A stretch of DNA of 58,539 bases from Phycisphaerales bacterium (GCA_044377725.1 JBILYM010000001.1:1-58539), one strand, 5' to 3'. Shown: positions 32,271-46,679, counted from the stretch's first letter. Notes: generated from the letters alone by a model not told the origin. Numbers and translations: made by a program.

Positions 32271-33353
32271 ATGCCTGACGACGATTTTGACATCGATCTT
32301 TCTCCAGAGGTGCCACCGCCGTTCGACTGGAGCGCGGTACAGAGTCCACAGCTGGATCTGGGGGCTATAGCTCCTCCTCCTCCTCCGCATGGCGCTCCGG
32401 GCACTCATGGGGCGCAAAGTCAAGTCCCTCCCGCGCCGTTCGTGCGAGACCGTATTGTCGTGCTTGGTCGGCGAAAGGCTGGCAAGTCGGTGTACTTGGC
32501 ACGCCTATACGAGCGTCTGTGGAACTCAAAGGGTGAGCTGCACATGGCGGCGGTCGATGGGCGAACACATACGTCCTTGCTGCTTCAGATCGATGCGATG
32601 ATGAAAAAGCTATGGCCAGCGGCGACGGAAGCCATGGCGCATTTCAAGGTGGACATTACCTATCGACAAGATCGGTATTTGATGATTGCCCCCGATTATC
32701 CAGGTGAAATCTTCAAGCGTGCATTTATGGAGGATTCGGACGAGCCGCTTGTTAAGGATCTCTTGGAAACGTGTGATCGCGCCGCAGCTGTCATCGTCTT
32801 AGTGGATCCGGAGGTCAATATCACCGGGAATTTGATGGAGCAGACTGAGCAGGATTATGGTTTGGTAGCAGCGATCAAACGGATTCGTGAGTCGCCTGGC
32901 GCCGAATTCGTCCCTATCGCGATCACGTTGACGAAGTGTGATGTCTTCCGAGCAGAAATCGAGGAGGCAGGAGGGCCAGCGAAGTTCGTCAAGGAGAATT
33001 ATCCCAATCTCTGTCGTGTGGCGTTTCCGGCGGGGCGTAGCGGAATGGTCTTCGCGTGTGCGGCTGTTCACGTGAAGCGCGACGGTATGGAAAAAGAGAT
33101 TCCGGATATGTCCAAGCCGCCCAAGGGTTTGATCGAGCCCATTGAATTCTGCTTGCGTGCAATGCGCGCCAATCGGCGAGAGTCACAGCAGCGTCAAGCG
33201 GAGAATGCGCAACGAGTATCGGTAGAGGCCGCTCGTGTTGCAGAACAAGAACTTGAGCGGAAGGATCGATTTGTCTCAACCGCAACTTTATTGGGATCGA
33301 TATTTGTGGCGATCGTTGTGGTGGTAATCCTTGTCGTCATGTTGATGAAGTAG
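32271..33353 (+). CDS. Locus gene M: tail-anchored TRAFAC-type GTPase
   Basis: G1 GRRKAGKS (32466-32489), G3 MIAPDYPGE and G4 ITLTKCDV. The C-terminal TM helix is TLLGSIFVAIVVVVILVVMLMK. The N-terminus is Pro-rich. Confidence 0.75.
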   Translation: MPDDDFDIDLSPEVPPPFDWSAVQSPQLDLGAIAPPPPPHGAPGTHGAQSQVPPAPFVRDRIVVLGRRKAGKSVYLARLYERLWNSKGELHMAAVDGRTHTSLLLQIDAMMKKLWPAATEAMAHFKVDITYRQDRYLMIAPDYPGEIFKRAFMEDSDEPLVKDLLETCDRAAAVIVLVDPEVNITGNLMEQTEQDYGLVAAIKRIRESPGAEFVPIAITLTKCDVFRAEIEEAGGPAKFVKENYPNLCRVAFPAGRSGMVFACAAVHVKRDGMEKEIPDMSKPPKGLIEPIEFCLRAMRANRRESQQRQAENAQRVSVEAARVAEQELERKDRFVSTATLLGSIFVAIVVVVILVVMLMK

Positions 33354-33371
33354 TTCTATGGATCGCAACTC

Positions 33372-35618
33372 ATGAACATTTCTGCCGATTCACACCTGTT
33401 CGGATCACGCAAGGGCTACGAATGCCTGGCGAAGTCGGCTGGCGTCACGTCCGGTGAGGACCGCCAACTTTCTGAATTCGGATTCGGTCAAAGTACAGAT
33501 GAACATTTTTTGTATGGACTAGCCACTCAGCCCACTGCATTTGGCCGCCCATTGAGTAGCGGTCGAGTGGCGATTACGCGCGTGATGGTTGGCCCTCTTG
33601 ATGATGGCGGTCGCCCCACTCTTGAGCGACGCACGATGATCGTCTCGGCCGCAGACTATTTGGCGATTCGACACGATTTGAAAGCGTTGATCAAAGACAA
33701 TGTTTGGGGTTCGTCGGCGTTCGCCGGTGGATTGCCAATACGGGTTCCAACCGCGGGAATGAGCCGCCGAAGTGCAGCGGACGCGTTGGCGTGGCGCATC
33801 TTTGACGCATGGGTCATCGGCATTGAATCCCGTCCGCCGAGGGGGGTTGTCATCGCTCCTGCAGCTGCTGGTGGCGACCAGGCACGAGCGGCAGACGCAG
33901 TCTTGACATTGGCTAGTCAATTGGCTGACGAAGACGCCGTGAAATTCAAGTGGGGCATCCGGCTTCTATCTCCCATCGAATGGTCCGATGTTCTGACGCT
34001 CTCGTCTGCTGGCGTGATGGATGGCCGACGCCCAGTGCACGGAATTGGCGCTGCCTGCGTCAAGCCAGAAGTCCAACGCGCCCAAGCTGCGAGTCCTGGG
34101 ATGCTGCCGACGGTGACATCGCTGCAGCGTGCAGCGATTCAGGAGGCGGTAGAGTTGGTTGACGACGGCATGTGGGATGGCGTTGGCGGTGGGGGCATCA
34201 TTCCGCCGCAGGGACTTTCTATGAAGAGGAAGCAACCCAAGCGAGCATTGATCATCGCGGCGATCGTCCTTCCGATCATTGGTCTGACCGCGCTTGGGAC
34301 TGTGAGTTGGTTGATTTGGAGGAAGCCTGGGGGAAGTGCGCCTGCGCCGGCGACCACTGATACGGTGATGCGCGAGCCCGCTCCTGCATCTGGTTCGGAT
34401 CCTGCTGCCCCCGCCAATCCAGCCGCTCCTGCATCGGGTTCGGATCCTGCTGCCCCCGTTACTCCAGCCGCTCCTGCATCGAATTCGGAACCTGCTGCCC
34501 CCGCCAATCCAGCCGCTCCTGCATCTGGTGCGAATCCTGCTGTCCCCGTTACTCCAGCCGCTCCTGCATCTGGTTCGGATCCTGCTGCCCCCGTTACTCC
34601 AGCCGCTCCTGCATCTGGTTCGGACCCTACTACCCCCGTTACTCCAGCCGCTCCTGCTGAGCCGAACGCCCCTAAATCGCCACTCGATCTGGGCGCATCG
34701 GAGGGCCTAATCAATACTTTGACGGATGACATCACGGTGAATGAGATCATGAAGTTTCCGGAGTACGAGATTTGCCAGAAAGAAGTGGATGCACTCAAAG
34801 AACTCGTCGGACTATCGGGATTGACGAAGGGCGGCAAGCTAATGTTTGATTTAGCAGGGATGGCTAAGAAGGCTGAGAAGGCAGATCGTGACCGGCAAGT
34901 ATTTAAGAATCCGCACGAGAGTTTGGCCGAAAAGGAATTTCGCGACAAGATGGACGCACTAAAGGGCTGGAACCACACGCAGTTATCGCAAGCGCAAAAA
35001 CGCGTGTTGAACTTTCAGCGCGCGAAGATTCAGGACCTTCGCGTATCTCCCCATTCGTTTGCCCAAACTAAAATGATAGACATGGAGAGCTTGAGCAAGT
35101 CAATTAAAGATTCGCTGAAGAAACCATCCGATCTTTCATCACAAGAGCGGAGCGACACAATGCTAACCATCATGCATTTTTGTTTGCGGCTATCGATTTC
35201 GCAGCGGTTTGACAGCAAACAGAGCAAAGCGGCATCAGCACAGTCCGCTACTTTGAGTGAGGTAAAGCGAGTTCTAGATGAAGTTGTGGCAGTTTTTCCA
35301 AGCGATGACGGGGCCGCTAGGGAGGCGCTGAACTTTATCCGGCCATTACTTCCGTCTTCCCTTACTAGTAACGAGGGGTTGATTGGACAGGGGATTTATT
35401 GGGAAAAGTACTCGATGACCAAGTCAGACACCAAGAGATTCCTGCGCAGTTCGTATTGGCAAACTCTTGAACTCAAAGGCGATGACATCTCCTGCAACGA
35501 TTTGTTCGAGGCATTGATTGATGCCGTATGTCCACCGGACCTCCGGGTGGGCCAAGTGGCAATTACTTTGAATGTCTTCCGAACTGCGATGGGCTACCCC
35601 ACGGCGAAGGCAAACTAG
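33372..35618 (+). CDS. Locus gene N: GAP1-N-like domain - TM helix - 6x15-aa Pro/Ala repeat - ~300-aa C-terminal domain (CTD-X) shared with gene O
   Basis: The N-terminus has GSRKGYECLAKSAGVTSGE and LDDGGRPTLERRTMIV, similar to gene Q. The TM helix is ALIIAAIVLPIIGLTALGTVSWLIW. The tandem repeat lies at 34380-34649. The C-terminal region from KFPEYEICQKEVDALK onward is closely similar (well over half of residues identical by eye) to the C-terminus of gene O. Confidence 0.7.
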   Translation: MNISADSHLFGSRKGYECLAKSAGVTSGEDRQLSEFGFGQSTDEHFLYGLATQPTAFGRPLSSGRVAITRVMVGPLDDGGRPTLERRTMIVSAADYLAIRHDLKALIKDNVWGSSAFAGGLPIRVPTAGMSRRSAADALAWRIFDAWVIGIESRPPRGVVIAPAAAGGDQARAADAVLTLASQLADEDAVKFKWGIRLLSPIEWSDVLTLSSAGVMDGRRPVHGIGAACVKPEVQRAQAASPGMLPTVTSLQRAAIQEAVELVDDGMWDGVGGGGIIPPQGLSMKRKQPKRALIIAAIVLPIIGLTALGTVSWLIWRKPGGSAPAPATTDTVMREPAPASGSDPAAPANPAAPASGSDPAAPVTPAAPASNSEPAAPANPAAPASGANPAVPVTPAAPASGSDPAAPVTPAAPASGSDPTTPVTPAAPAEPNAPKSPLDLGASEGLINTLTDDITVNEIMKFPEYEICQKEVDALKELVGLSGLTKGGKLMFDLAGMAKKAEKADRDRQVFKNPHESLAEKEFRDKMDALKGWNHTQLSQAQKRVLNFQRAKIQDLRVSPHSFAQTKMIDMESLSKSIKDSLKKPSDLSSQERSDTMLTIMHFCLRLSISQRFDSKQSKAASAQSATLSEVKRVLDEVVAVFPSDDGAAREALNFIRPLLPSSLTSNEGLIGQGIYWEKYSMTKSDTKRFLRSSYWQTLELKGDDISCNDLFEALIDAVCPPDLRVGQVAITLNVFRTAMGYPTAKAN
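34380..34649 (+). repeat. 45-nt x 6 in-frame tandem repeat (APASGSDPAAP[AV][NT]PA), plus a partial seventh unit
   Basis: Units start at 34380, 34425, 34470, 34515, 34560 and 34605, each beginning gctcctgcatc. A few substitutions per unit alternate between ccgccaatcc and ccgttactcc variants. Confidence 0.9.
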
Positions 35619-36640
35619 ATCGATGCTGATTTGCCGAGTACCGCAGTAATGCATAGGAGCGACTCCGCGGCAGCGGGGGTCGCGCGGTTCCTGCAGAGCG
35701 GAGGGCTACGCCGATGTCGCTATCCAGCGCTGCGTTAGCGCCACCCCATCGATTGTCGGAAGTCTGCCAACATTTGCTTCAGGCTGTCACCCTGTGAGGC
35801 TGTTGGGCAAACAGCACAAATCAATCCTTCGAACAAATCGTTGCAGGAGATGTCATCGCCTTTGAGTCCAAGAGTTGGCCAATACGAACTGCGCAAGAAT
35901 TTCTGGGTGTCTGGTTGCCTCATCGAGTACTTACTCCAATACACACCCTGTCCCGCCAACCCGCCGTTACTACTTGGGGTAGACGGAAGTAATCGTTGGA
36001 TAACGTTCAGTACATTCTGAGCAGCCCCGACATCATCGCTCGGTCCGGCCGCTACAACTGCTGCCAAAACTCGCTTTATGTCACTCAAATCAGCGGACTG
36101 TGCTACCGCAGCTTTGCTCTGTTCGATGTCAAATCGTTGCGAAACTGATAGCCGCAAACAAAAGTGCATGATGGACCGCATCGTGTCGATCCGCTCTTGT
36201 GATGTCAGATCGGATGCTTTCTTCAGCGAATCTATAATTGACTTGCTCATGCGATCCATGTCTAGCATTTGAGTTTGGGCGAATGGTCGCGGAAGTTCGG
36301 GATAGGTGAACAGCGCCCGGCTCTGGAACTTCAACACACGATCTTGAGCTCGCGATAGTTGCGAGGGACTCCAGAGCTGTAGAGCGTCCATCTTGGCGCG
36401 AAACTCGGCGGCGGCATGGCTGCGCACGGTATTCGGGCTGTCTGGCCACTTTTCTCGAGTATCAAGTTCGCGTTTAGCGTTGATAGCCATGTTTGGTAAA
36501 TCAAACGCCAACGTTCGCTTACCGTTTTTCGCCACTCCCAGTAGTCCGACGAGAGACTTCAGTGCGTCCACTTCTTTCTGGCAAGCCACGTACTCTGGAA
36601 ATTTTAGTACATCCGATTTTCCGATGTCATCACTCAATTT
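34720..36640. repeat. Imperfect ~0.9-kb inverted duplication formed by the 3' ends of convergent genes N and O
   Basis: The protein C-termini are paralogous. At DNA level there is a 39-nt perfect reverse-complement match (35471-35509 vs 35829-35867), and several other stretches differ by only a few substitutions by eye (for example 35171-35235 vs 36105-36170). The antisense ORFs 35030-35227(-) and 36078-36272(+) translate to near-identical peptides. Confidence 0.85.
35659..35683. terminator. GC-rich hairpin in the 116-bp convergent spacer (possible bidirectional terminator)
   Basis: gcgactccgc-ggca-gcgggggtcgc forms about a 10-bp stem with one bulge and one G-U pair. There is no clear U-tract on either strand, so this is weak as an intrinsic terminator. 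Confidence 0.3.
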
Positions 36641-37648
36641 ATGGAAAAGGGTAATTGCCGGTTGGTTTAGCGCGAACTTCGGCACTGGTAGGGCCTCTGG
36701 TTTAGACCCAGGCTTACGCGGAGCAGTCGTTGGCTTCCGCGCCGGCTCGACTATCAGTGCAGGTGCATTAGTGGGCGTCGGTGCAGGCGCGGGTGTTGGT
36801 TCCAGCGCGGGGTTCGGTTCCGGAACGGCCTCCCGTGCAGGCGCGGGTGTTGGTTCCGGTGCGGTCATCGATTCCGGTGCGGGCGTTGGTTCCGATTCCG
36901 GTGCGGCCGTCGGCTCGGGATCAGGAGCGAACTCAGGATCCGGAGCCCGGGCACGCGTGGTGGTGCGCCGAGGATTGGGTGTGGGCTTGATCCCACTAGC
37001 AATGAGATTCAAGATCAAGAGCGCCACCCAAACTGCGGCGGCGACACCAATGGGCTTGATCCATTGTTGGCGCGCGTACTTGTTTCCAAACTGAGTTTGG
37101 ATGTACAGCACCTGGGAGCGCGCTGAGATGAAGTACCAACTGAATAGAACGCCGAGATACACACCCAGCGGCGACATGGATAGCAAAGTCGGCACCGGAG
37201 GTTGGAGCAATTGACCGACTGTAAATGCGAGAAAGGCAGCAAAGCCGACATAAGCCCAGATCATCGACTTGGATGCTTTCTGCGGCTCGTTGAGAGCTTT
37301 CCAGTTCTTCGCGTGTAGCCATGCACCAAATCCAACACTGAAGACGAGGCTCCAGTTCACCGCTGCAGTGGGATTCCAAAGGGGTGGGCTGATGCGTCCG
37401 CCCCCACGGGAGGCAGTTGGCGGGAATCGATGGCCGCCGGCATTGGTCCACAGTTCTGGAACAGTAGACGCTGGCACCCAGCCGGCAAATCCCGCTCGCC
37501 ACATCATGGTTTCCGGCTCAATTCGACCTGCGGCAATCATGCCTTGAATTTGGTGGTCATCGAGCGGGCCAGCTCTCTGCCGATCGTTGGACATGAAGTA
37601 CCAAGCAGCCACGTTGGGATCCGATCCGAATTGAGGAACAGCATTCAC
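35735..37648 (-). CDS. Locus gene O: GYF_2 (DUF4339) domain - 4 TM helices - Pro/Glu/Thr-rich repeat - CTD-X paralogous to the C-terminus of gene N
   Basis: The GYF-like motif is WYFMSNDRQRAGPLDDHQIQGMIAAGRIEPETMMWRAGFAGWVPASTVPELW. Four hydrophobic segments follow, then APDPEFAPDPEPTAAPESEPTPAPESMTAPEPTPAP. The C-terminal KFPEYVACQKEVDALK...GDDISCNDLFEGL matches gene N. GTG start at 37648. Confidence 0.7.
   Translation of the reverse strand: MNAVPQFGSDPNVAAWYFMSNDRQRAGPLDDHQIQGMIAAGRIEPETMMWRAGFAGWVPASTVPELWTNAGGHRFPPTASRGGGRISPPLWNPTAAVNWSLVFSVGFGAWLHAKNWKALNEPQKASKSMIWAYVGFAAFLAFTVGQLLQPPVPTLLSMSPLGVYLGVLFSWYFISARSQVLYIQTQFGNKYARQQWIKPIGVAAAVWVALLILNLIASGIKPTPNPRRTTTRARAPDPEFAPDPEPTAAPESEPTPAPESMTAPEPTPAPAREAVPEPNPALEPTPAPAPTPTNAPALIVEPARKPTTAPRKPGSKPEALPVPKFALNQPAITLFHKLSDDIGKSDVLKFPEYVACQKEVDALKSLVGLLGVAKNGKRTLAFDLPNMAINAKRELDTREKWPDSPNTVRSHAAAEFRAKMDALQLWSPSQLSRAQDRVLKFQSRALFTYPELPRPFAQTQMLDMDRMSKSIIDSLKKASDLTSQERIDTMRSIMHFCLRLSVSQRFDIEQSKAAVAQSADLSDIKRVLAAVVAAGPSDDVGAAQNVLNVIQRLLPSTPSSNGGLAGQGVYWSKYSMRQPDTQKFLRSSYWPTLGLKGDDISCNDLFEGLICAVCPTASQGDSLKQMLADFRQSMGWR
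36781..36930 (-). repeat. Degenerate ~54-nt-period in-frame repeat encoding the Pro/Glu/Thr/Ala-rich spacer of gene O
   Basis: gtgcaggcgcgggtgttggttcc occurs at 36781-36803 and again at 36835-36857 (+ strand). ggttccg/gattccggtgcgg-type subunits follow. Confidence 0.7.
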
Positions 37649-37756: not shown

Positions 37757-40700
37757 TCAATCCACTCGGTAGATAAAGGAATAGGAAGGACCGGAAGAAC
37801 CGCCTTCCGCGAGCGTGCCACCTTCAAGCCGGATGGGCTTCAGACTCCATGCCCCTCCGGCGATGTCGTGTTCGAGAAGCATGAATCGGCCATTCAGGTT
37901 CGATTCTGAGGCTCGGCGCCGTGCCTCGCCAGGCACTTTGGGGAGAAGCAGGCCAGCAATCGTGGTTGCGCGTGCGGACTTCGATACACCAGCCCATTGC
38001 GCTGATCGACTCTGCACGGCGGCTTTCAGGTCGGGAATGGAGTCGAGAAACAACTGCGCAGAGCGGCGTAGATTCTCACGCTCTGCCTTTGGATCGGCCT
38101 TTGAAAGTGACAGGGCTACCCAGTCTGCTTCAGTCAACTTCAACGCTTCAGGGCTGTGCAGCACGCTCTCCAATTTGCCACACAATGACTGATCGATACC
38201 CTCAGGGAAGGAGAGGCTTTCGACGAATACCTGGAGAGCGTGCACTATGAAGTTGGCCAATCCCAGAATTTCGGTGGCTTTAGTCTTGGATTTGACTGAC
38301 ATCCGTGCACTCTCGATTGCACCGAGCCACGCATTCTGCGCCACGATGGCATCTGAGCTCCCGAACGCGGGCGTTGCTTGAGTGAAAGCGTCACACCATG
38401 GCGGGACCTCGCGTCGCGCGCTTCCGTTCACGTCACCGCTTCGTACTTCTATGTTGGCCTTGAGTTCGGTCAGTGGCACCGTCAGCTCCTTGCAGCTGAA
38501 GAGTAGCCCTGCAAGGGATCCGGTTCCTGGTCCGCCGTCGCGCATGAACGCCCAACGATTTTTTGTCAGCGAAAGCTGCTGGATAGACAAGAGACCAGTG
38601 TCTTTGAGTTGGGCGAGTGCGCTGAGACCAACGAGAGCTCCATCGTTTGCGGAGATAGTTTCACACATAGCGATGCAGCCTGTAGCGGCACTGGTGTATG
38701 GCGACGTTGGGAAGCTATGCAGATGAGCTTCGAGGGACTTACGAAATGTAGCTGCTTCTTGCGAAGAGGCAGGTATCGCTATTCCCGATGACTTTGCGGA
38801 TGTGGCAGGTCCGCCAAGCACCACTTCGCGCCAATGCTGCAGTGCGAGCGCTACTTGGGCCATATCTCGCGTCTCATCTAATACCGCGGTGGGCAGCCCC
38901 AGCGCTTTCAAAGTTTCGGGCTGGGCCAAGAGTTCAGTGATTCGCTTCGAGAATTCCTCCTCGCTTGTCGGTGTCTTGGAGAGACGAGCGAGCGCGCTTT
39001 CCGCAGTTGCGATCGCGAGTGTCGTCCGTTCGATAGCGCCGACTTGTTCGCCTAGTCGGGCGGATACATCTGTGGCCACTTGCCGTTCTGGGTAATTCGC
39101 TGGAATCTTGCGGACAAAGTCATCACAGCGCTTTCGAATGGCGTTGGCCTGCGACATCCATGAGATGCTTTGTTCGCTACCTGCTGCTCCGACCGGAGCA
39201 CCCAACGCATCGGCATCACGTCTAAGAGTTTCGAGCTCTTCAGTGATCGGACGCCGCCGGTCTGCAATTCGCTTGACTTCTTCAGCCTCGACAGTCTTGA
39301 GTAGTTCTTCAGCCTCGGTTCGTTCTGTGGGTGCTAGTTTCGCGGTTGAGTCAGAGTTAACCGACAGCGCGTCGCGGATGGATTTCTTGAGCGCGGTCAG
39401 GCTTGCATCGTCAGTCGCTGGATCCTTGCTGGCTGCGACAGTGCTTTCCAGCAAGCGTCGTACTTCCGCTCGACGGGCGGAGTTTGCAAGTTCGGCCTGC
39501 GCGACGACACGTTCGGCCTCAACCATTACTGGATAAGAAAGTGCCCATGGGGTAGTGGACTTGATAGCAGCGAGTCGATTTTTTGCCCCGGCTAGATCAC
39601 CTGCCTTCGAAAGCCCTTGAACGTCGGCAGCCATCACTGCTACTTCTGCTTGTTTTTGGGCAGCCGCCATCGAAATGCTGAACGTCGTGATCGCCGCGGC
39701 AATCGCGACAAGCACAGCGGCAATGATCAGTCCAATGATGATCCTTCGACGCGTGATCGCAGCACTTTGGACGCGCACGAAGCGTTCCGCGAGATCCTGT
39801 GGAACACCAATTCCGTAGGACTCGACTGCAGAGCGCAGACGTGACAACTCTAGTTGGCTCGTTTTGCGATCGAGACCGAGACGCAGTTCAGTACAGGCGT
39901 TGTTGTGTGCAGCTTCGACGCGCAGTCGGGCAAGCTCGGTTTCAGACCACTCGATCGCCTCCTTGGTGCGTTCTCGGAATTTATCTCCGGGGCTGCAGCG
40001 GCGCTCGCGTTCAACGGCATCGACCTCTTCTGAGAGCGATCCGACCAGCATTAAGTCTCGCCGCGCATATGCAGCCTCAATCCGCGTGGCTAGTTTGGCA
40101 TACAACTCGGCTGCTTCTCGTCGACGTTCCCGCGAGATCTCGGACTGAAGCCAATCGTAGAACTCAGCGGACAACTGGGATTGCCACCCGAGCCCCTCGA
40201 TCGCATCCAATGCGTCGACAAGTGTCTGGTGTTCGCCACGCATGGAGGCGGCCCTGCACGTCGATTCAAGTGCGGCGAGTGCCTCTGTCTCATAGCGTTT
40301 GGCAAGCTGTTTTAGGGCGGGATTACGAGGTGCCGCGGCTAGGAGCGTCTGCAGCTGCTGCATTCGAGTTGCTAGCGATTGTCGGGCAAGTACGGAAGTC
40401 TGAAATCGTTGGACCAGTTCATCAAGCGACGAGGCGTCGCCGACCGCGTCGGAGAGCGCGACGAATGCGCGCTCATCAATGCGGCTATTGACCGAAATCC
40501 CAGCCATATTGCATGCCTGATCCCACTCCAGTCGCCCTTCGTTCATGTTCAACTGAAATGCAACCTTGCAAAGTTCCGGGTAGGACTCGTTCACCGATGC
40601 TGCCTCAACAATGAGTCCACGGCTTGCCCACTCGCTCAGCATGCGCAGGTAGCGATTACAAGTGACAATGCGCAACTCGAGCATCTCACGCACTTCTTCG

Positions 40701-40813
40701 ATGCGCTCCTGCAGCGTCCCTGGAGTGCATGCGTCACGCACGATCGATATCAATTCACTCGCTTCTGCTGGTGTAATCTCGGGATAGGCATTCATGTGGT
40801 TGGATTGATTCAT
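37757..40813 (-). CDS. Locus gene P: 1018-aa single-pass membrane protein (helical/coiled-coil cytoplasmic N-domain, large helical ectodomain)
   Basis: The ATG at 40813 lies 13 nt after the stop of Q. The TM helix IIIGLIIAAVLVAIAAAITTFSI is preceded by RRR. No recognisable family. Confidence 0.65.
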   Translation of the reverse strand: MNQSNHMNAYPEITPAEASELISIVRDACTPGTLQERIEEVREMLELRIVTCNRYLRMLSEWASRGLIVEAASVNESYPELCKVAFQLNMNEGRLEWDQACNMAGISVNSRIDERAFVALSDAVGDASSLDELVQRFQTSVLARQSLATRMQQLQTLLAAAPRNPALKQLAKRYETEALAALESTCRAASMRGEHQTLVDALDAIEGLGWQSQLSAEFYDWLQSEISRERRREAAELYAKLATRIEAAYARRDLMLVGSLSEEVDAVERERRCSPGDKFRERTKEAIEWSETELARLRVEAAHNNACTELRLGLDRKTSQLELSRLRSAVESYGIGVPQDLAERFVRVQSAAITRRRIIIGLIIAAVLVAIAAAITTFSISMAAAQKQAEVAVMAADVQGLSKAGDLAGAKNRLAAIKSTTPWALSYPVMVEAERVVAQAELANSARRAEVRRLLESTVAASKDPATDDASLTALKKSIRDALSVNSDSTAKLAPTERTEAEELLKTVEAEEVKRIADRRRPITEELETLRRDADALGAPVGAAGSEQSISWMSQANAIRKRCDDFVRKIPANYPERQVATDVSARLGEQVGAIERTTLAIATAESALARLSKTPTSEEEFSKRITELLAQPETLKALGLPTAVLDETRDMAQVALALQHWREVVLGGPATSAKSSGIAIPASSQEAATFRKSLEAHLHSFPTSPYTSAATGCIAMCETISANDGALVGLSALAQLKDTGLLSIQQLSLTKNRWAFMRDGGPGTGSLAGLLFSCKELTVPLTELKANIEVRSGDVNGSARREVPPWCDAFTQATPAFGSSDAIVAQNAWLGAIESARMSVKSKTKATEILGLANFIVHALQVFVESLSFPEGIDQSLCGKLESVLHSPEALKLTEADWVALSLSKADPKAERENLRRSAQLFLDSIPDLKAAVQSRSAQWAGVSKSARATTIAGLLLPKVPGEARRRASESNLNGRFMLLEHDIAGGAWSLKPIRLEGGTLAEGGSSGPSYSFIYRVD

Positions 40814-40826
40814 CGCCTTGGTTTCT

Positions 40827-41858
40827 TCATCGACGCAACATCAGCAGTACGACAGTGGTGGCTATCGCTAGCAGCAGCACCACAGCCGTGGTGATCGCTG
40901 CGTACAGATAAACAGTCGATGTTCTGTGTTCGGGTGGGGCGGGGTTGGGCGCTGATCCGGATGGATTCCTCCGATTCATGGTTGATGCCACGGAGATCGG
41001 AGCGGTTGATTGTTCGTCGATGACGGCCACTGGTGGGGCAAGACCGCTCAGGTCGAGCACCGGTTCCTGACGCCGGGCGCCGGCGGCGGGGGTGCGGCGC
41101 GGCGGTTCCGTCGGACCAATTGGCGGGCTCGCGGTGCCGCGTGCGTTGGTCCAATCAGCAATCGGACGTGACGTGCCGGGTACGCCTTGTTGTAGGAGCA
41201 CGAGACTTGTCGCGATGCTGCCATGGGAATCCTCCGTCGTCGCGATGCGCAATGCTGATGGTCTGAGAGACTTCTCAACGATCGCGGCGATGATTGTCTG
41301 GACTGGTGCATTGCGCGGTATCAGTAATCTCGCGGGTTCGTTGTGTGTTCGGGAGCCAATTGCGGCAAGGTGCGCTGCCCAACCTTCAGCATGATCGGTG
41401 AGGGCTTGGAGTGCGGCATGTGCTGAATCGAGGATGGCGGCTGGTGCCGCGGTTGGGGCATGTCGCAATGGAAGGCGCCGAGGCTGCCCTTGGAAGTTCT
41501 GGCAAAAAACGCCATCATCGAGCAACACCGCGGCGATAGATGCGGCGGTGAGCTCCGTGCCCATGAGTACAAGATGATGCGCAAGGCGGGCTGGTCTGCC
41601 AGTGTGGTCGGCTACCACAGGCACGATCCGTGATAAGACCATGGCGGGACCGGTGGCAGTCGTGACCGGCCACAGCCTGAGCACTGCATGGGCGGCGGCA
41701 TCGCTCGATTTCTCAATCCGCGCAACGGTGGTTGCAGATGCGTTCGCTAGCGCTGCAATGAGATCTGCAGCCATCCCCTCGCTACATGCAACTGTGGTGT
41801 ATCCCGAGCGGTCGTCGAAGAGTCCTTTCGGGGCAGAAGTGTGGATGAGCTCGAGCAT
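40827..41858 (-). CDS. Locus gene Q: tail-anchored GAP1-N-like protein (GTPase-associated)
   Basis: The start is taken at MLELIHTSAPKGLFDDRSGYTTVACSEGM (ATG 41858, 13 nt after the stop of R). The ORF-track start at 42008 would overlap R by 137 nt. ADHTGRPARLAHHLVL resembles the DxxGRxxxxxxHxLV element I recall for GAP1 N-domains. The C-terminal TM helix is VYLYAAITTAVVLLLAIATTVVLLML. Confidence 0.6.
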   Translation of the reverse strand: MLELIHTSAPKGLFDDRSGYTTVACSEGMAADLIAALANASATTVARIEKSSDAAAHAVLRLWPVTTATGPAMVLSRIVPVVADHTGRPARLAHHLVLMGTELTAASIAAVLLDDGVFCQNFQGQPRRLPLRHAPTAAPAAILDSAHAALQALTDHAEGWAAHLAAIGSRTHNEPARLLIPRNAPVQTIIAAIVEKSLRPSALRIATTEDSHGSIATSLVLLQQGVPGTSRPIADWTNARGTASPPIGPTEPPRRTPAAGARRQEPVLDLSGLAPPVAVIDEQSTAPISVASTMNRRNPSGSAPNPAPPEHRTSTVYLYAAITTAVVLLLAIATTVVLLMLRR

Positions 41859-41871
41859 GGAATCGTCAACA

Positions 41872-43101
41872 TCAGGCGAGCATTGGGAACACCTTGGGAT
41901 CCGACATGGCGATCGCAAGCACGAAGGGCATTTCCGCCCATCGGGGTCGGACGTCTGCAGCACGCAGTTTGAAATGGCCGTCTGCGTCGCGGGTTGGCGA
42001 AGTACCAAGCGCGCTCGCCGGAACGAAGATGACCTTTTGTGCCAAGATGTTCGCGGCGTTTAGAAACTCTGGTGCCGTCTCTCGCAGTGCCTCGCGTGCG
42101 AGTTGGTCGACCTCTTGAAGTTTGGCTATCAACCGCTTCCGTCGGGGTATCAATGCGTCCGGGAGGTCGAGTTCGGACCAGTCCGCACCCAATGCCTTGT
42201 CCGCCCAAACGTCGGCCTTTGTGAGTGCAATGATCAAGGGAATAGGGATCGGCGCCGTCGGATCCAGTGAGCGGAGGCGGCGAACACGGGCGATAGCTTC
42301 GGTAAGTACAAGTTCCTGTCGTTCGTGCCGGCCGGTGTGTGGCGCATCAAATCCGTCGGCGAAGCGATCACGGAATCGTGCGTCTTGCAGCGGGTCGAAC
42401 ACAGTAACGATCGCGCTGCTCCGTTCGAGATGGCGCGTCGCGATTTCTGCACCAGCAAACTGACTGTCCGGGAGAAAATGCTCGCCAGCATTGTCATACA
42501 GAACCATCACCGACCGGCGGGTTTCATCTTTGTGGCGTGTCACGAAGTACGACGGCTTGGTGAGCGTTTCAGTCTGGCCACCGATGCGCACCGAGCGATA
42601 CAGATCGTTACCGCCAACATCGGTCTTCGGCAGTGTGACGTCTGCGGAAGGATCGCGCGTCGCAAACAGCAAGCTCTCGTTGCGGTGTAGCAGTGCGTTG
42701 AAACGAGGATCGGCATCCACGATCTCCAAGCCGAAGTCCGCTGCCCGCTGTGCAAGACCCCACATTCCAGAGGCGAGCAGATTGGTCTTTCCGGATCCTG
42801 GCGCGCCGACAACTGAGATTGGAATCTGACGGAGTTCCAGCAACGCCCGTGGGAACTCAATGTGGCAACGCGGACAGGCTATGCGTGTGCACCGACCGTC
42901 GTTTGGATCGATCGCATTTCCGGATGCATCGAAGCGCATCGCGCGGAATCGCAGTTGCTCGGCCGGCCCGGCGATTGGGTCACCGCGGAGTTGGACGCTC
43001 TCTGCAATGAAACGCACTTGGGTTGGCGGAAATTCACGCCAACAGTTCGGGCAGACGACAGATCGCCTAAGGGATGTACCGGAATCCTTGGCCGTGGCCA
43101 T
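41872..43101 (-). CDS. Locus gene R: Zn-ribbon + TRAFAC-type GTPase
   Basis: CPNC...CPRC (C17/C20, C76/C79) precede G1 GAPGSGKT (42784-42807), G3 VLYDNAGE and G4 IIALTKADV. No TM helix. Confidence 0.75.
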   Translation of the reverse strand: MATAKDSGTSLRRSVVCPNCWREFPPTQVRFIAESVQLRGDPIAGPAEQLRFRAMRFDASGNAIDPNDGRCTRIACPRCHIEFPRALLELRQIPISVVGAPGSGKTNLLASGMWGLAQRAADFGLEIVDADPRFNALLHRNESLLFATRDPSADVTLPKTDVGGNDLYRSVRIGGQTETLTKPSYFVTRHKDETRRSVMVLYDNAGEHFLPDSQFAGAEIATRHLERSSAIVTVFDPLQDARFRDRFADGFDAPHTGRHERQELVLTEAIARVRRLRSLDPTAPIPIPLIIALTKADVWADKALGADWSELDLPDALIPRRKRLIAKLQEVDQLAREALRETAPEFLNAANILAQKVIFVPASALGTSPTRDADGHFKLRAADVRPRWAEMPFVLAIAMSDPKVFPMLA

Positions 43102-43199: not shown

Positions 43200-45317
43200 T
43201 CAACGCGTCTTTATGGGCTGGGGAGGCAATTTGAATTGCGCATCCAAATCCTTCGGCACAGGGATTGCCAGTACATGACTAAGGCGCGCTCGCGAGACCC
43301 AGATTCCATTCGTGTAGTCACGCCCTAAAGCACTGATGAGTGATTTACGTTTCTCAGGGTCGGCTTCGGCCCCGAACATTTCAAGCAACTGTTGAACGGA
43401 TGGTTTTTTATCGATGCCATGTGTCAAATGCTCGCTTCCCACCGCAATTTTTTGTTGACCCGACTCCACTGCTCTTAGGAAACAATTGAAGTCGCGGCTC
43501 TCGGTGGACGACAGCGATTTGTCGGCGATTTCTGCTAAATCGGGGTACATCTTCAGAATGTGTGTTCGAAACTCCGGTGAACAAACCTCGTCGTCTCCAA
43601 GTCTCGTCGTTTCAAGTCCCCACATGTTGCCATCTTCACCCATAAAGGCCGCAAATGCGTGCCCGGGCGGCATCAAGATCATGCTCGATAGGCCCATTTT
43701 CTCAAGAAAACTACAAATGAGGATCGTGCCGTCAACGCAGTTAGCGTTTTGCGACAACAACGTCTCGTGGATGCTCCTGGTCTCCTGAGCGCTGTGATCG
43801 ACCGAACCTGGTAGCGAGGAGTATCGCAAGCCGCGCGCCTTCAATTCTCGCCACAGCAGAAATACCGCGAAGAAGGACCGGTGGGCACCTGCGCCCCCGG
43901 ACGCGGACATCCCAGTGCGCTTCGCGAGAGAGCACTGATTTATTTGGTTCAAGATTCTCTCGACCCAAGGGTGACCCTCGTTGACCATTCCTACGAATCC
44001 GAGACGCATCGGATAAGAGGTTTCGACAAGGTCGGGCGGCATGATCGTGACGGTTTCAAGCATGCGCTCGTCTTCTGACCCATCACCGTATTTGACACTC
44101 ACCGACATGGTGATGGTTTCTGGCGCAGTTAACTTCGCGAGTTCGTCTATGTCCCACTGGGGTTGGAGCCCGATTTCCCAAAGGTCCGAATCATGCTCAT
44201 CCTTCGATAGCCAAACACATTCTGGATGTTCTCCTTCAGCGAGGTGGACCGATTCCTGTTTAGTCGCTTGTCCACCAGAGAGAAGTCTCCGACCTGCAGC
44301 GTTGCGTAACTCAATCTCAACTCGAACATTAGTGCCGGTCGGCGCATTTGTGAAGTACACGCTGAATACGGGTCGAGTGGCATCGAGCCAATCCGATTGG
44401 CTGATGAATTGCGCTCTGCAGACCAGTTCGAGGGGGTTGGTCTCGGCTCCGTCCGCCGCTCTTGACATTGAAAATCGATCTACGAACCAGTCGACCTCTT
44501 GACCGGCTGGAACCGCCAATCGTTCCGCTTCTACCTCAGCAAGTGCGATTTCCGAGTTAGCGTAGACCACTTTGTTAAACGCCAGTTTGGCGCCGATTGA
44601 CTTGGCGAGACCCGTTGTTCCACGTTGAATTGCGACCGTCGCCTGCGAGGGTTGTTTGGGCGCTGGCGCTGGCGCTGGCGGTGGCTCTGGAGCTGGTGCT
44701 GGAGCGGGTGTTGCTATCGCACTGGGCACGCCTGCTGCGGGGGCGGCGGCACGTGCGACCGTCGCGACGGGGGTCGCTTTCGCCACGATTGGTGCCTTGG
44801 TCTCCGCTCCACCAACGGTTCCGGACGCCGTTCGGTTGCCTGCGGAGTTCTGCGGCGCGGGCTCAGATACCGCGATGCTCGTTGGTTGTTCGAGCGGAGG
44901 TGCTGGCCGCCTAAAGAACATGGCAGCACCGATTCCGACGGTGGCAACCAGTGACAACATTCCGATCCCGATCGCTACGTAGAGCACTCCCCGCCCGCGT
45001 CTCCCCGCCGACGGTTGGTTGATCGGGGGCGCTAGAAATGGTGCTGCTACTGATGATCGGGCAGGGGGTTCCAATACCGGACCTAGCGAAATAGATCCGC
45101 GATCCGGGGGTGCCCGCTCAAACGCAGGCAGAGACGCTGATGCTGCAGCCCGTGGCTGCGGAGGCGCGGATGGACGATGTGCGCGTTTGTGCAGATTTCT
45201 GGCTGTATGAGGAAGAACCGTTCGACGCCCGCAACGTTTGCATCGCACTTCTTCCGCAGTCGTCCCCTCGGGAAGAATCAGGGACGCTCCACAGTGTTGG
45301 CAATCAACGGTGTTCAT
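43200..45317 (-). CDS. Locus gene S: Zn-ribbon - TM helix - Pro/Ala-rich spacer - ectodomain ending in a transglutaminase/papain-like Cys-His domain
   Basis: CQHC...CKRC lies at the N-terminus. The TM helix is VLYVAIGIGMLSLVATVGIGAAMFF. PAPAPAPEPPPAPAPAP follows. NANCVDGTILICSFLEKMGL...PGHAFAAF...WGLETT gives Cys527 (codon 43737-43739) and His553. Confidence 0.65.
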   Translation of the reverse strand: MNTVDCQHCGASLILPEGTTAEEVRCKRCGRRTVLPHTARNLHKRAHRPSAPPQPRAAASASLPAFERAPPDRGSISLGPVLEPPARSSVAAPFLAPPINQPSAGRRGRGVLYVAIGIGMLSLVATVGIGAAMFFRRPAPPLEQPTSIAVSEPAPQNSAGNRTASGTVGGAETKAPIVAKATPVATVARAAAPAAGVPSAIATPAPAPAPEPPPAPAPAPKQPSQATVAIQRGTTGLAKSIGAKLAFNKVVYANSEIALAEVEAERLAVPAGQEVDWFVDRFSMSRAADGAETNPLELVCRAQFISQSDWLDATRPVFSVYFTNAPTGTNVRVEIELRNAAGRRLLSGGQATKQESVHLAEGEHPECVWLSKDEHDSDLWEIGLQPQWDIDELAKLTAPETITMSVSVKYGDGSEDERMLETVTIMPPDLVETSYPMRLGFVGMVNEGHPWVERILNQINQCSLAKRTGMSASGGAGAHRSFFAVFLLWRELKARGLRYSSLPGSVDHSAQETRSIHETLLSQNANCVDGTILICSFLEKMGLSSMILMPPGHAFAAFMGEDGNMWGLETTRLGDDEVCSPEFRTHILKMYPDLAEIADKSLSSTESRDFNCFLRAVESGQQKIAVGSEHLTHGIDKKPSVQQLLEMFGAEADPEKRKSLISALGRDYTNGIWVSRARLSHVLAIPVPKDLDAQFKLPPQPIKTR
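44659..44710 (-). repeat. Hexanucleotide-type (GCTGGC-like) in-frame microsatellite encoding (PA)n/(PE)n
   Basis: The + strand reads ggcgctggcgctggcgctggcggtggctctggagctggtgctggagcgggtg. Confidence 0.7.
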
Positions 45318-45434: not shown

Positions 45435-46679
45435 TCACCGCAACGCCACCGCCTCCGCATCATCAATCGCAACCGTTGAACCAACGTGTCCGATGTCCCA
45501 ATCGGAGGTCGATTCCACCAGCACCATCGGGGTGTTGTTCACAGTGATGCATTGCTCACCGGGCTGCGTGCTGCAACCGATCGCCAGGATCATGTGCGGC
45601 GTATTGCCGCTCATGCAGTAGACGAGCGCCAGCGGCGTGTCGATATCGATGCTGCGAATCAGCGTTGCCAGGAGCAGGCTCTTGGTATCGCAATCGCCAC
45701 CGTCGATGAGCGCCTCGGCGGGAGTGCGTAGGCCGCAGCGGGTTTTGCCGTCATCAACAAGATCATGGCGCTGATCATCGACTTTGTGATATGGAACAGC
45801 GTTTTGCACATAGCTAGTGAGCGCTTCGATACTTTGCCGAGCGGATGGCTGCATGCGCGGGTTGTTCCAGTAGGCATTGATGACGTCAATGGCAACGCCG
45901 CGCAGGGCGGGCGCCGATTGGTCAAGAATCCACTGGTGATCCGGGGCAATTCCATCGGCAGTGCACGTGATTCCGTGCTGCGTCAGTGTTTGCGTGACGG
46001 CTTGTTCAATGGCCGCAAGGGCGCCTGGAGTTTGGTGGTAGGTGATGGATTCCAGCGCCGCGGCGGGGAATCCAAAGTGGTGCTCCAGCGCATCGGCCCG
46101 TGCGATGTCGATCGCGGATGGGATGTGGAACGCGGTGGGCACGCATTCGGCGCGCATGTACTTGGTGTCCGCATCGCGTCGGACGATGCATGACTGGTCG
46201 TCGGTCCAATCGACGAAGGCGATGTTGCGGAAGCGAGCACGCGGCGCGGAGAACTCGTGCGGCGATTCGTACCAGGCGCGGAAGTTAGCGTTCTCTGGAA
46301 TGGCCAGAATGCTGGCGAGCACTGCAGCGATGTTGACTGCACTAGCGGCAGCGTTTGAGTCATTCGCAGTGGTGGTGTTCGCCGCGCCGGATGTCGAGGG
46401 TGCGGCGGGAACGGTTGGAACGTTCGGGGCGTTTGCCGGCGAATTCGTGTTCGGTGCAGTGGCGACGGCCGGATCAATCGCACGCGGCGCGCGGCGCGCC
46501 ATGGAACCCTTGCGCGTTGGGCGAGCGCGGGCGGGTGAACGAGCACCGCTCGGCGTAGACATCGGCGTGGAAAGCGCGGGACCGCCGGGCGCAGTGGCTG
46601 CGGGCGGAGCAGCGGCGAATGCCGGCTCGATGGTGATCACGGCGAGAAGGATGCCGGACGCGATGGTGGCGATACGCAT
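45435..46679 (-). CDS. Locus gene T: secreted protein with a transglutaminase/papain-like Cys-His domain (paralogous in motif pattern to S)
   Basis: Signal peptide MRIATIASGILLAVITIEPAFAA, followed by a Pro/Ala/Asn-rich region. DGGDCDTKSLLLATLIRS...GNTPHMILAIG...VLVESTS gives Cys330 (codon 45690-45692) and His362. Confidence 0.6.
   Translation of the reverse strand: MRIATIASGILLAVITIEPAFAAAPPAATAPGGPALSTPMSTPSGARSPARARPTRKGSMARRAPRAIDPAVATAPNTNSPANAPNVPTVPAAPSTSGAANTTTANDSNAAASAVNIAAVLASILAIPENANFRAWYESPHEFSAPRARFRNIAFVDWTDDQSCIVRRDADTKYMRAECVPTAFHIPSAIDIARADALEHHFGFPAAALESITYHQTPGALAAIEQAVTQTLTQHGITCTADGIAPDHQWILDQSAPALRGVAIDVINAYWNNPRMQPSARQSIEALTSYVQNAVPYHKVDDQRHDLVDDGKTRCGLRTPAEALIDGGDCDTKSLLLATLIRSIDIDTPLALVYCMSGNTPHMILAIGCSTQPGEQCITVNNTPMVLVESTSDWDIGHVGSTVAIDDAEAVALR

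Follow-up and report, generated by a model that had tools for sequence, protein, structure and literature searches.

A tail-anchored DO-GTPase gene and an adjoining gene for a GAP1-N2-like membrane protein form a conserved pair in Planctomycetota

Here we report an analysis of two adjoining genes, M and N, at positions 32,271-35,618 of a 58,539-nucleotide stretch of DNA from a Phycisphaerales bacterium (GCA_044377725.1, JBILYM010000001.1:1-58539), which we refer to throughout as the window. M encodes a tail-anchored member of the DO-GTPase family and N a bitopic membrane protein that opens with a predicted GAP1-N2 domain. The two genes form a strictly conserved pair, and a second pair of the same kind, R and Q, lies on the opposite strand of the window. 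We consider it likely that M and N constitute a membrane-tethered GTPase switch of the DO-GTPase/GAP1-N2 type, and that they are the second couple of a larger planctomycete system. The two genes and their parts are as follows (aa, amino acids; TM, transmembrane).

32271-33353, plus strand: gene M, tail-anchored DO-GTPase family protein, 360 aa (Pfam DO-GTPase1/DO-GTPase2 and 118 homologues)
32271-32444, plus strand: M aa 1-58, N-terminal tail, acidic then Pro-rich (PPPPPHGAPG), from reading the sequence
32466-32489, plus strand: M Walker A motif GRRKAGKS, aa 66-73 (G66, R67, G71 and K72 invariant in 39 homologues)
32694-32708, plus strand: M Walker B motif DYPGE with the family-typical glutamate, aa 142-146 (D142, Y143, G145 and E146 invariant)
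32931-32942, plus strand: M guanine-specificity motif TKCD, aa 221-224 (T221, K222 and D224 invariant)
33288-33344, plus strand: M C-terminal TM anchor, aa 340-358 of 360 (hydropathy 3.34)
33372-35618, plus strand: gene N, bitopic GAP1-N2-like partner protein, 748 aa (open reading frame directly 3' of M)
33372-33761, plus strand: N aa 1-130, predicted diverged GAP1-N2 domain, modelled as a longin/PAS-like alpha+beta fold (hhalign, PF20013 in relatives, AlphaFold2 and Foldseek)
33762-34157, plus strand: N aa 131-262, second conserved, predicted cytoplasmic alpha/beta subdomain with W141, FDAW and W194-G195 (family conservation and model)
34248-34304, plus strand: N TM helix, aa 293-311, with KRKQPKR before the helix (hydrophobicity)
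34378-34657, plus strand: 45-nt tandem repeat in 6.2 copies, encoding the Pro/Ala-rich linker (PAAPASGSDPAAPVT)n (Tandem Repeats Finder, 88% matches)
34689-35615, plus strand: N C-terminal domain, aa 440-748, predicted to be periplasmic; a paralogue of the C-terminal part of a neighbouring GYF-domain protein (BLASTP 2e-109)

M is predicted from its sequence to be a TRAFAC-class P-loop GTPase that binds and hydrolyses GTP. It scores 38.4 bits against DO-GTPase1 and 36.4 bits against DO-GTPase2, both above the curated cut-off of 27, and matches no further Pfam family. Neither M nor R was matched by an Era, Der, Obg or other housekeeping TRAFAC GTPase model in Pfam or NCBIfam, and the NCBIfam scan returned no matches for M, R or Q and low-complexity matches only for N. 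A homologue search recovered 118 proteins, nearly all of which carry PF19975 and/or PF19993, and the named homologues come from metagenome-assembled genomes (MAGs) of Phycisphaerae or Planctomycetota. The three GTPase motifs and the C-terminal anchor, all of which had been pointed out in a sequence-only reading of the window, are present as described; the key Walker A, DxxGE and TKxD residues are invariant across an alignment of 39 homologues, so the motifs are not due to chance. A TM helix falls within the last ~25 residues of 103 of 108 full-length family members, and an N-terminal one in none (0/108), which makes tail anchoring a trait of the M family as a whole. In M itself both a CxxC pair and an N-terminal TM helix are lacking; the N-terminal zinc ribbon or TM segment associated with DO-GTPases is not obligatory and was reported for 60% and 13% of members, respectively (Kaur, Burroughs, Iyer and Aravind, eLife 2020, PMC7159879).

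The N-terminal tails of the M family begin acidic (e.g. YDLE.D) and are Pro-rich, with a PPP run in 71 of 104 members, and in a subgroup of homologues (P0077 and the ~425-aa proteins P0093-P0121) a GYF_2 domain is fused at the N-terminus in place of that tail. These fusions, together with the Pro-rich tails, suggest a functional link between the GYF domain and M-type GTPases. Searched against PDB sequences, the M-family profile found only YcjX, at a non-significant E of 0.27. The YcjX/YcjF pair resembles M-N in that a P-loop GTPase gene lies beside a gene for a membrane protein, and two M homologues have a precomputed PF04317 match, but M itself is without PF04317 and YcjF is unrelated to N.

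The spacer between the two genes is 18 nt (33354-33371), so that the ATG of N lies 19 nt past the last base of M, as had been noted earlier. A genome scan with the M-family alignment gave 80 loci, all of them in Planctomycetota MAGs as judged by their relatives; L numbers are used here to cite individual loci. An N-family gene lies directly 3' of the M-family gene at every locus in which both were detected (78/78), with a median gap of ~5 nt, and M and N overlap by 4 or 8 nt in many loci, which suggests translational coupling. M and N are a strictly conserved gene pair. The genes downstream of N vary, and include one for a VWA-domain protein of ~808 aa in 24-28 loci and one for a trypsin-like peptidase in ~7. 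One relative of the window, L008, is 96% identical to it over M; the record titles met with among L008, L054 and L071 ('Chitinophaga pinensis', 'uncultured Klebsiella sp.' and 'uncultured Bifidobacterium sp.') are probably taxonomic mislabels. In 14 loci the M homologue is directly preceded, on its own strand, by guaB, the gene for IMP dehydrogenase (e.g. L016, 8255-9901), an adjacency that may reflect lineage synteny or a link to the supply of guanine nucleotides.

The first ~130 residues of N are assigned, by profile comparison, as a diverged GAP1-N2 domain. Two motifs in this region, GSRKGYECLAKSAGV (aa 11-25) and DDGGRPTLERRTMIV (aa 77-91), had been likened to elements of GAP1 N-terminal domains, and the elements named in that comparison do fit the Q-family consensus of HTSAPxGL....GYTTVAC and DYTGRPARLAHHLVL. 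Across 34-74 homologues the two motifs of N show little or no variation and are hence not a product of chance, and the invariant residues H8, S12, G15, Y16, R59, R65, D77, R81 and T83 are candidates for a catalytic or interface role. Full-length N has no Pfam match, and simple searches could not decide whether N and Q are homologous: BLASTP between the two proteins gave a marginal E of 0.26, yet with a collinear alignment that lays motif on motif, while a word-indexed search found 3 N homologues only, and the resulting 4-sequence profile aligned with the Q family at 9.7% probability. An exhaustive profile search of 1.8 billion proteins was needed. At E<=1e-3 it placed the N-family domain in 370 clusters, and at E<=1e-10 in 312, invariably at the N-terminus of proteins of ~350-1100 aa. 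With a profile of 148 sequences, hhalign aligned the N family to the Q family at 94.4% probability (E 9.3e-8, 121 columns, N 4-129 on Q 8-133). The N-family hidden Markov model (HMM) scores 11 of 12 Q-family proteins and picks out N and Q alone among the 22 proteins of the window, and PF20013, the Pfam GAP1-N2 model, is matched by 38 of 74 N-family members scanned singly (best E 1.9e-9), missing about half of the subfamily at E 0.01. It is on the profile alignment, the selection of Q by the N-family HMM and the PF20013 matches of relatives that the assignment is based, and the relatedness of N and Q that can be demonstrated in this way is limited to the first ~130 aa.

Beyond the conserved module, N carries a TM helix, a flexible-looking linker of 15-aa repeat units between the helix and the C-terminal domain, and a C-terminal domain (aa 440-748) with no significant Pfam match; it has no signal peptide. 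A 95%-identical relative (P0001) has a different linker. This layout is general: 131 of 132 N-family members have a TM helix after residue 200, usually a single one, with a median start at 284 and a median of 371 residues beyond it. The distal regions are not conserved across the family, and a few contain fn3, TSP3 or other repeats (fn3 in the C-terminal region of 3 of 74 members).

The second pair, which the sequence-only reading had also recognised, belongs to a set of five genes convergent to M-N.

35735-37648, minus strand: 637-aa protein with a GYF_2 domain, rich in TM segments, encoded at the end of the convergent arm (Pfam GYF_2 64 bits; hydrophobic segments)
37757-40813, minus strand: o1018, single-TM helical protein, 1018 aa, companion of R-Q (homologues 3' of the GAP1-N2 gene in L001-L005)
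40827-41858, minus strand: gene Q, tail-anchored canonical GAP1-N2 protein, 343 aa (PF20013 at 56.3 bits; TM helix at aa 322-340)
41872-43101, minus strand: gene R, soluble DO-GTPase paralogue of 409 aa whose N-terminus carries two CxxC zinc ribbons (GAPGSGKT, DNAGE, TKAD)
43200-45317, minus strand: o705, zinc-ribbon and TM protein, 705 aa, head of the R-Q arm (kept upstream of R in L001-L004 and L056)

R and Q repeat the arrangement of M and N, with the true start of Q being the ATG at 41858, 13 nt after the R stop, and not the upstream TTG of the mechanical open reading frame. R reaches 25.8 bits against DO-GTPase2, over the P-loop stretch only and just below the cut-off, but nine R orthologues aligned as a family to the M family at 96.7% (hhalign, E 4.3e-10) across 205 columns, which is the whole GTPase domain, and M and R are paralogues. 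PF20013 is found on all 11 Q homologues. The two pairs do differ in their anchoring, as had been proposed: M is tail-anchored and N has a single TM helix in mid-protein, whereas R is soluble and Q tail-anchored. Across L001-L005, identity to the window is 55-75% for R and falls to 30-42% for Q, 27-59% for o1018 and 27-41% for o705, reflecting faster divergence of the last three.

A single conserved system with two arms describes M-N and R-Q better than two independent modules do. The earlier description of two paralogous GTPase/partner modules stands in that there are two pairs and that M and R are paralogous; it is the independence of the pairs that we would give up. The second arm adjoins M-N in L001, L006, L008, L009, L069 and L077, where the arms are mostly convergent, and in L056 and L062, where they are collinear. 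L001 has the convergent layout of the window, with M and N followed on the opposite strand by genes for a GYF protein, an o1018-like protein, a GAP1-N2 protein, a zinc-ribbon GTPase and an o705-like protein. Further genes, one of them encoding a VWA-domain protein, come after M-N in L006 (whose contig also holds L002) and in another contig; in both, the convergent arm encodes a zinc-ribbon GTPase, a GAP1-N2 protein, a protein of ~1013 aa, a member of the MotA_ExbB family and two small proteins. The collinear arms of two Phycisphaerales MAGs (L056, 415-11521; L062, 9815-20075) run on one strand as M, N, R, Q and o1018, with o705 between N and R in L056 only, and support the reading as a single system. 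M and R occur in the same locus in the window, L001, L008, L056, L062 and L077, and on one contig in L002/L006. Thirty-nine loci extend 6 kb or more downstream of N; 24 of them have an o1018-like gene, which lies on the opposite strand in 22. R and Q themselves are usually outside the 10-kb flanks that were used, and these flanks under-count the co-occurrence of R-Q with M-N. In most relatives (L009, L016, L018, L030 and others) the arm ends in a MotA_ExbB-family protein and two conserved proteins of ~277 and ~318 aa. The GYF-TM protein replaces this trio in the window, and L004 and L005 carry both.

Systems of this general kind are known, in the literature that we searched, from one comparative-genomics paper only, in which 'GTPase-centric' DO-GTPase/GAP1 systems were predicted computationally (Kaur et al., PMC7159879; PF19975, PF19993, PF20013). 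That study described the Walker-B glutamate as a hallmark of DO-GTPases, GAP1 genes encoded downstream of the DO-GTPase gene, C-terminal TM helices on GAP1-N2 proteins and GYF and TM-rich companions in planctomycetes, and it argued for a role in biological conflict (PMC7159879). The genes of the window share with those systems the Walker-B glutamate in M and R, a GAP1-type gene immediately 3', two paralogous GTPases of which one (R) has two zinc ribbons, GAP1-N2 proteins with C-terminal TM helices, a planctomycete host and a GYF and TM-rich companion. They differ in that M has a C-terminal anchor only, as opposed to the four TM helices at the N-terminus plus a single one at the C-terminus described, in that each GTPase has its own GAP1-N2 partner, giving two pairs in mostly convergent arms, and in that the N domain has diverged too far for the Pfam model and GAP1-M, GAP1-C and an FNIII-repeat protein were not detected here. 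The R-Q arm matches planctomycete GAP1-N2 systems that have already been described, and M-N is a diverged duplicate of the core GTPase/GAP1 pair whose departures are variations within the described kind. What M-N adds is a minimal, strictly coupled two-gene version (78/78 loci, 370 protein clusters), a clean pair that comes with a confident structural model and testable invariant residues.

AlphaFold2 modelled N(1-262) from a 34-sequence alignment with a mean predicted local distance difference test (pLDDT) score of 94.4 and a predicted TM-score (pTM) of 0.91; a run on 4 sequences was unusable (pLDDT 54.7). The model has an alpha+beta part at aa 1-120, consisting of two strands, helices, three strands and a long helix (in order strand-strand-helix-strand-strand-strand-helix), followed by an alpha/beta part at aa 123-262. 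In a Foldseek search of PDB the sole match at E<=0.001 was TagF of Acinetobacter baylyi (9T0N; E 1.7e-5, probability 1.0, 235 columns). Weaker matches to the first subdomain included LOV/PAS domains, the Lst4 longin, a Lokiarchaeal Roadblock-Longin protein, TagF of Pseudomonas aeruginosa and a GATOR1 chain, with probabilities of up to 0.96 and E of 0.02-0.07 for those of longin type. Viral structures gave nothing significant, the N-family profile had no match among PDB sequences, and the TagF Pfam family was absent from the 74 relatives of N. Longin and roadblock domains regulate small GTPases, and the modelled resemblance is compatible with, and hints at, a role of GAP1-N as a GTPase-binding regulatory platform. 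We treat the resemblance of the N model to TagF and longins as a lead and not as a classification.

TagF is a post-translational regulator of type VI secretion, with structures available from A. baylyi (9T0N) and P. aeruginosa (6IZ8, 2QNU), and its authors described a two-domain arrangement whose C-terminal domain is unrelated to characterised proteins. Like the N model, TagF passes from an alpha+beta to an alpha/beta part, and TagZ, with which it works at the inner membrane, is a single-pass membrane protein. Unlike N, TagF is a soluble protein that binds Fha and Hcp and for which no GTPase partner is known, and N and TagF show no sequence similarity; type VI secretion genes were not seen among the window proteins. 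The longin and roadblock platforms (Lst4/FNIP, Nprl2/3 of GATOR1, Loki Roadblock-Longin proteins and MglB) are like N in being obligate partners of a small P-loop GTPase, but the partner of N is a DO-GTPase and not Ras- or Rag-like. We know of no GTPase-activating protein (GAP) or guanine-nucleotide exchange factor (GEF) activity for any GAP1 protein, and a literature search for links between TagF and DENN or longin domains returned nothing usable. Longin, roadblock, DENN and TagF go unmentioned for GAP1 in the description of the family (PMC7159879). The high-confidence model is new, and it makes GAP1-N as a longin/TagF-like regulator of a membrane-tethered GTPase a concrete hypothesis.

On the mechanism that we favour, M would be held on the cytoplasmic face of the inner membrane by its C-terminal anchor, with N as its cognate partner. 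N would present a cytoplasmic module of two subdomains, one TM helix, a flexible repeat linker and a lineage-variable domain across the membrane; that the distal domain is extracytoplasmic is suggested by the lack of a signal peptide and by KRKQPKR ahead of the helix. The variable outer domain may sense an envelope or extracellular cue, and the signal might then pass through the single TM helix to the GAP1-N2 module, which would bind M and set its nucleotide state as a GAP, a GEF or an effector platform. M, possibly as a heterodimer with R, could in turn control the membrane components of the other arm, whose GYF domain may dock on the Pro-rich tail of M. In line with the proposal of Kaur et al., the system probably serves in envelope surveillance or in biological conflict. 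The fast-diverging partners, the variable ectodomains, the trypsin and VWA companions and a stretch of o705 that resembles an anti-phage protein all fit a role in conflict. The stretch in question, aa 387-563, matches the NCBIfam model 'anti-phage protein ProA' (NF058533) at E 4.8e-16 over model positions 63-240 of 1903; o705 further contains one TM helix and, at its N-terminus, a zinc ribbon (CQHC...CKRC), and a literature search on anti-phage ProA found no usable paper.

A number of observations weigh against reading M-N as a DO-GTPase/GAP1-N2 switch within a two-arm system. Of the 39 loci that reach 6 kb or more past N, 15 showed no second-arm gene, so that M-N may also act alone. N(1-140) itself scores 13.4 bits against GAP1-N2 (PF20013), with an E of 0.081 and below the cut-off of 24, which leaves the homology of N to rest on profiles and intermediates, and a comparison of the second subdomains of N and Q detected no similarity. 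Pfam showed no GAP1-M or GAP1-C family in N, Q or the 74 relatives, although the presence of those models in the library is unconfirmed; of the description of N as a GAP1-N-like multidomain membrane protein, the GAP1-N2-like first ~130 aa and the TM helix are retained, and no other GAP1 domain was seen. The TagF match has a TM-score of just 0.38 and a root-mean-square deviation of 7.1; for the first subdomain of N, the scores of PAS/LOV domains are close to those of longins. The GYF protein has 3 or 4 hydrophobic segments, which leaves its topology ambiguous. PADLOC gave no meaningful match for any of eight proteins, including M and N, and the searched literature held no experimental study of any DO-GTPase system.

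The strongest competing explanation accepts the two arms and differs as to their purpose: by analogy with the Agl-Glt machinery of Myxococcus, they could form a GTPase-controlled envelope machine driven by the proton-motive force, used in surface movement, envelope remodelling or transport, and not a conflict device. In Agl-Glt the MglA GTPase and its roadblock-fold regulator MglB act with GltJ, which carries a zinc ribbon and a GYF domain, and with the MotA/TolQ-like AglRQS proteins; the GYF domain of GltJ binds a proline-rich sequence in the GltJ-AglZ interaction, and GltJ reads MglA-GTP (Attia et al. 2024, PMC11135422). The two-arm system likewise combines a GTPase switch, zinc ribbons and a GYF domain on membrane proteins, candidate proline-rich ligands and, in relatives, a MotA/ExbB-type channel gene with two conserved small genes in the convergent arm. 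Nearly every component is membrane-anchored, the 637-aa protein has a GYF domain that is matched by the GltJ model of NCBIfam (E 5e-9), the modelled N module resembles longins and TagF, the 14 loci with M-N beside the IMP dehydrogenase gene suggest a stable chromosomal locus, and the lack of a PADLOC match would also agree with an envelope function. The likeness is one of analogy only, however: there are no Glt/Agl orthologues or structural-protein homologues beyond generic GYF and MotA folds, the GTPase belongs to a different family, and the zinc ribbons are on R and o705 and not, as in GltJ, on the GYF protein. Furthermore, the partner genes differ between relatives (VWA, trypsin, GYF, MotA trio), the fast divergence of Q, o1018 and o705 against a conserved R and the variable outer domain of N are a better fit to an arms race, and o705 contains the match to an anti-phage protein model. 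We regard an envelope machine as unlikely on balance, while keeping it in serious view.

A bolder extension, drawn from the structural model, would make GAP1-N2 a prokaryotic GTPase-regulatory platform of TagF/longin type, DO-GTPase/GAP1 pairs in general bacterial counterparts of longin-GTPase switches, the two-arm system (with its MotA/ExbB-like channel, GYF adaptor and Pro-rich GTPase tails) a GTPase-gated envelope machine and not an immune system, and TagF an offshoot of that fold without a GTPase. We offer this as speculation and think it doubtful that all of it is right.

It is improbable, in our judgement, that M-N is instead the tail end of the plus-strand operon that lies upstream (10262-32202) and works with the proteins encoded there and not with the R-Q arm. 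The genes from 10262 to 35618 are all on one strand with mostly short gaps or overlaps, only 68 nt separate the preceding TPR gene from M, L008, the relative with 96% identity, retains the arrangement, and two of the upstream proteins, SrfC and o1325, also have P-loops. Against this, o1325, o296, o371 and TPR380 have no homologue beside M-N in any of the other 77 loci, a divergent gene precedes M in L006 and another contig, and the neighbour that does recur is the second arm; a promoter-like site in the 68-nt gap is of a kind whose frequency is at chance level. A last alternative, that N is a non-GAP1 single-pass receptor whose gene merely adjoins a GTPase gene and whose short motifs are convergent, draws on its sub-threshold Pfam score and on the BLASTP and 4-sequence profile results, and is made very improbable by the deep profile alignment, collinear from both N-termini, by the PF20013 matches in half of the N family, by the N-family HMM picking Q alone among the other window proteins and by the position that N and Q share directly after a DO-GTPase gene.

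Returning to the two-arm system that we favour, a 414-aa membrane protein without a family match (o414; window 45435-46679, minus strand) is encoded upstream of o705, with which it has no detectable similarity. Homologues of o414 recur near such systems: in L002 (2-571 and 1313-2767) and L003 they head the R-Q arm, and in six other loci (L054, L062, L070, L072, L075 and L079) they are placed divergently upstream of M; o414 may belong to the system. No fn3 match was found in o1018 with Pfam.

A repeat is found where N and the GYF gene converge.

34752-36604, no strand assigned: imperfect inverted repeat across the facing 3' ends of N and of the GYF gene (arms at 34752-35534 and 35804-36604, with 77-81% complementarity)

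This repeat arises from protein paralogy, in that the last ~300 residues of N are paralogous to aa 330-636 of the GYF protein, with 48% identity overall in the BLASTP alignment noted above. The shared ~300-aa domain sits after a TM helix and a Pro-rich linker, and its presence on both a core component and a putative effector resembles the logic of adaptor domains. Such sharing with a neighbouring gene was considered as a general principle and rejected, as it is seen in the window and L008 only and not in the 79 other loci. The GYF gene also contains a weaker array of 18-nt repeats (36773-36894).

The plus-strand gene string directly upstream of M (10262-32202) encodes a VWA protein, SrfB (PF07520, 318 bits), an SrfC/Virul_Fac protein with the P-loop GESQCGKS, o1325, which has the P-loop GFPNSGKT at its N-terminus and a C-terminus that is weakly FGE-sulfatase-like, and a TPR protein whose TPR-S match is below threshold. 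That these Srf-like genes travel with M-N was considered and rejected, the nearest of them recurring only in L008. Since the genes nearest M do not recur beside M-N elsewhere, the Srf-like cluster is probably a separate system.

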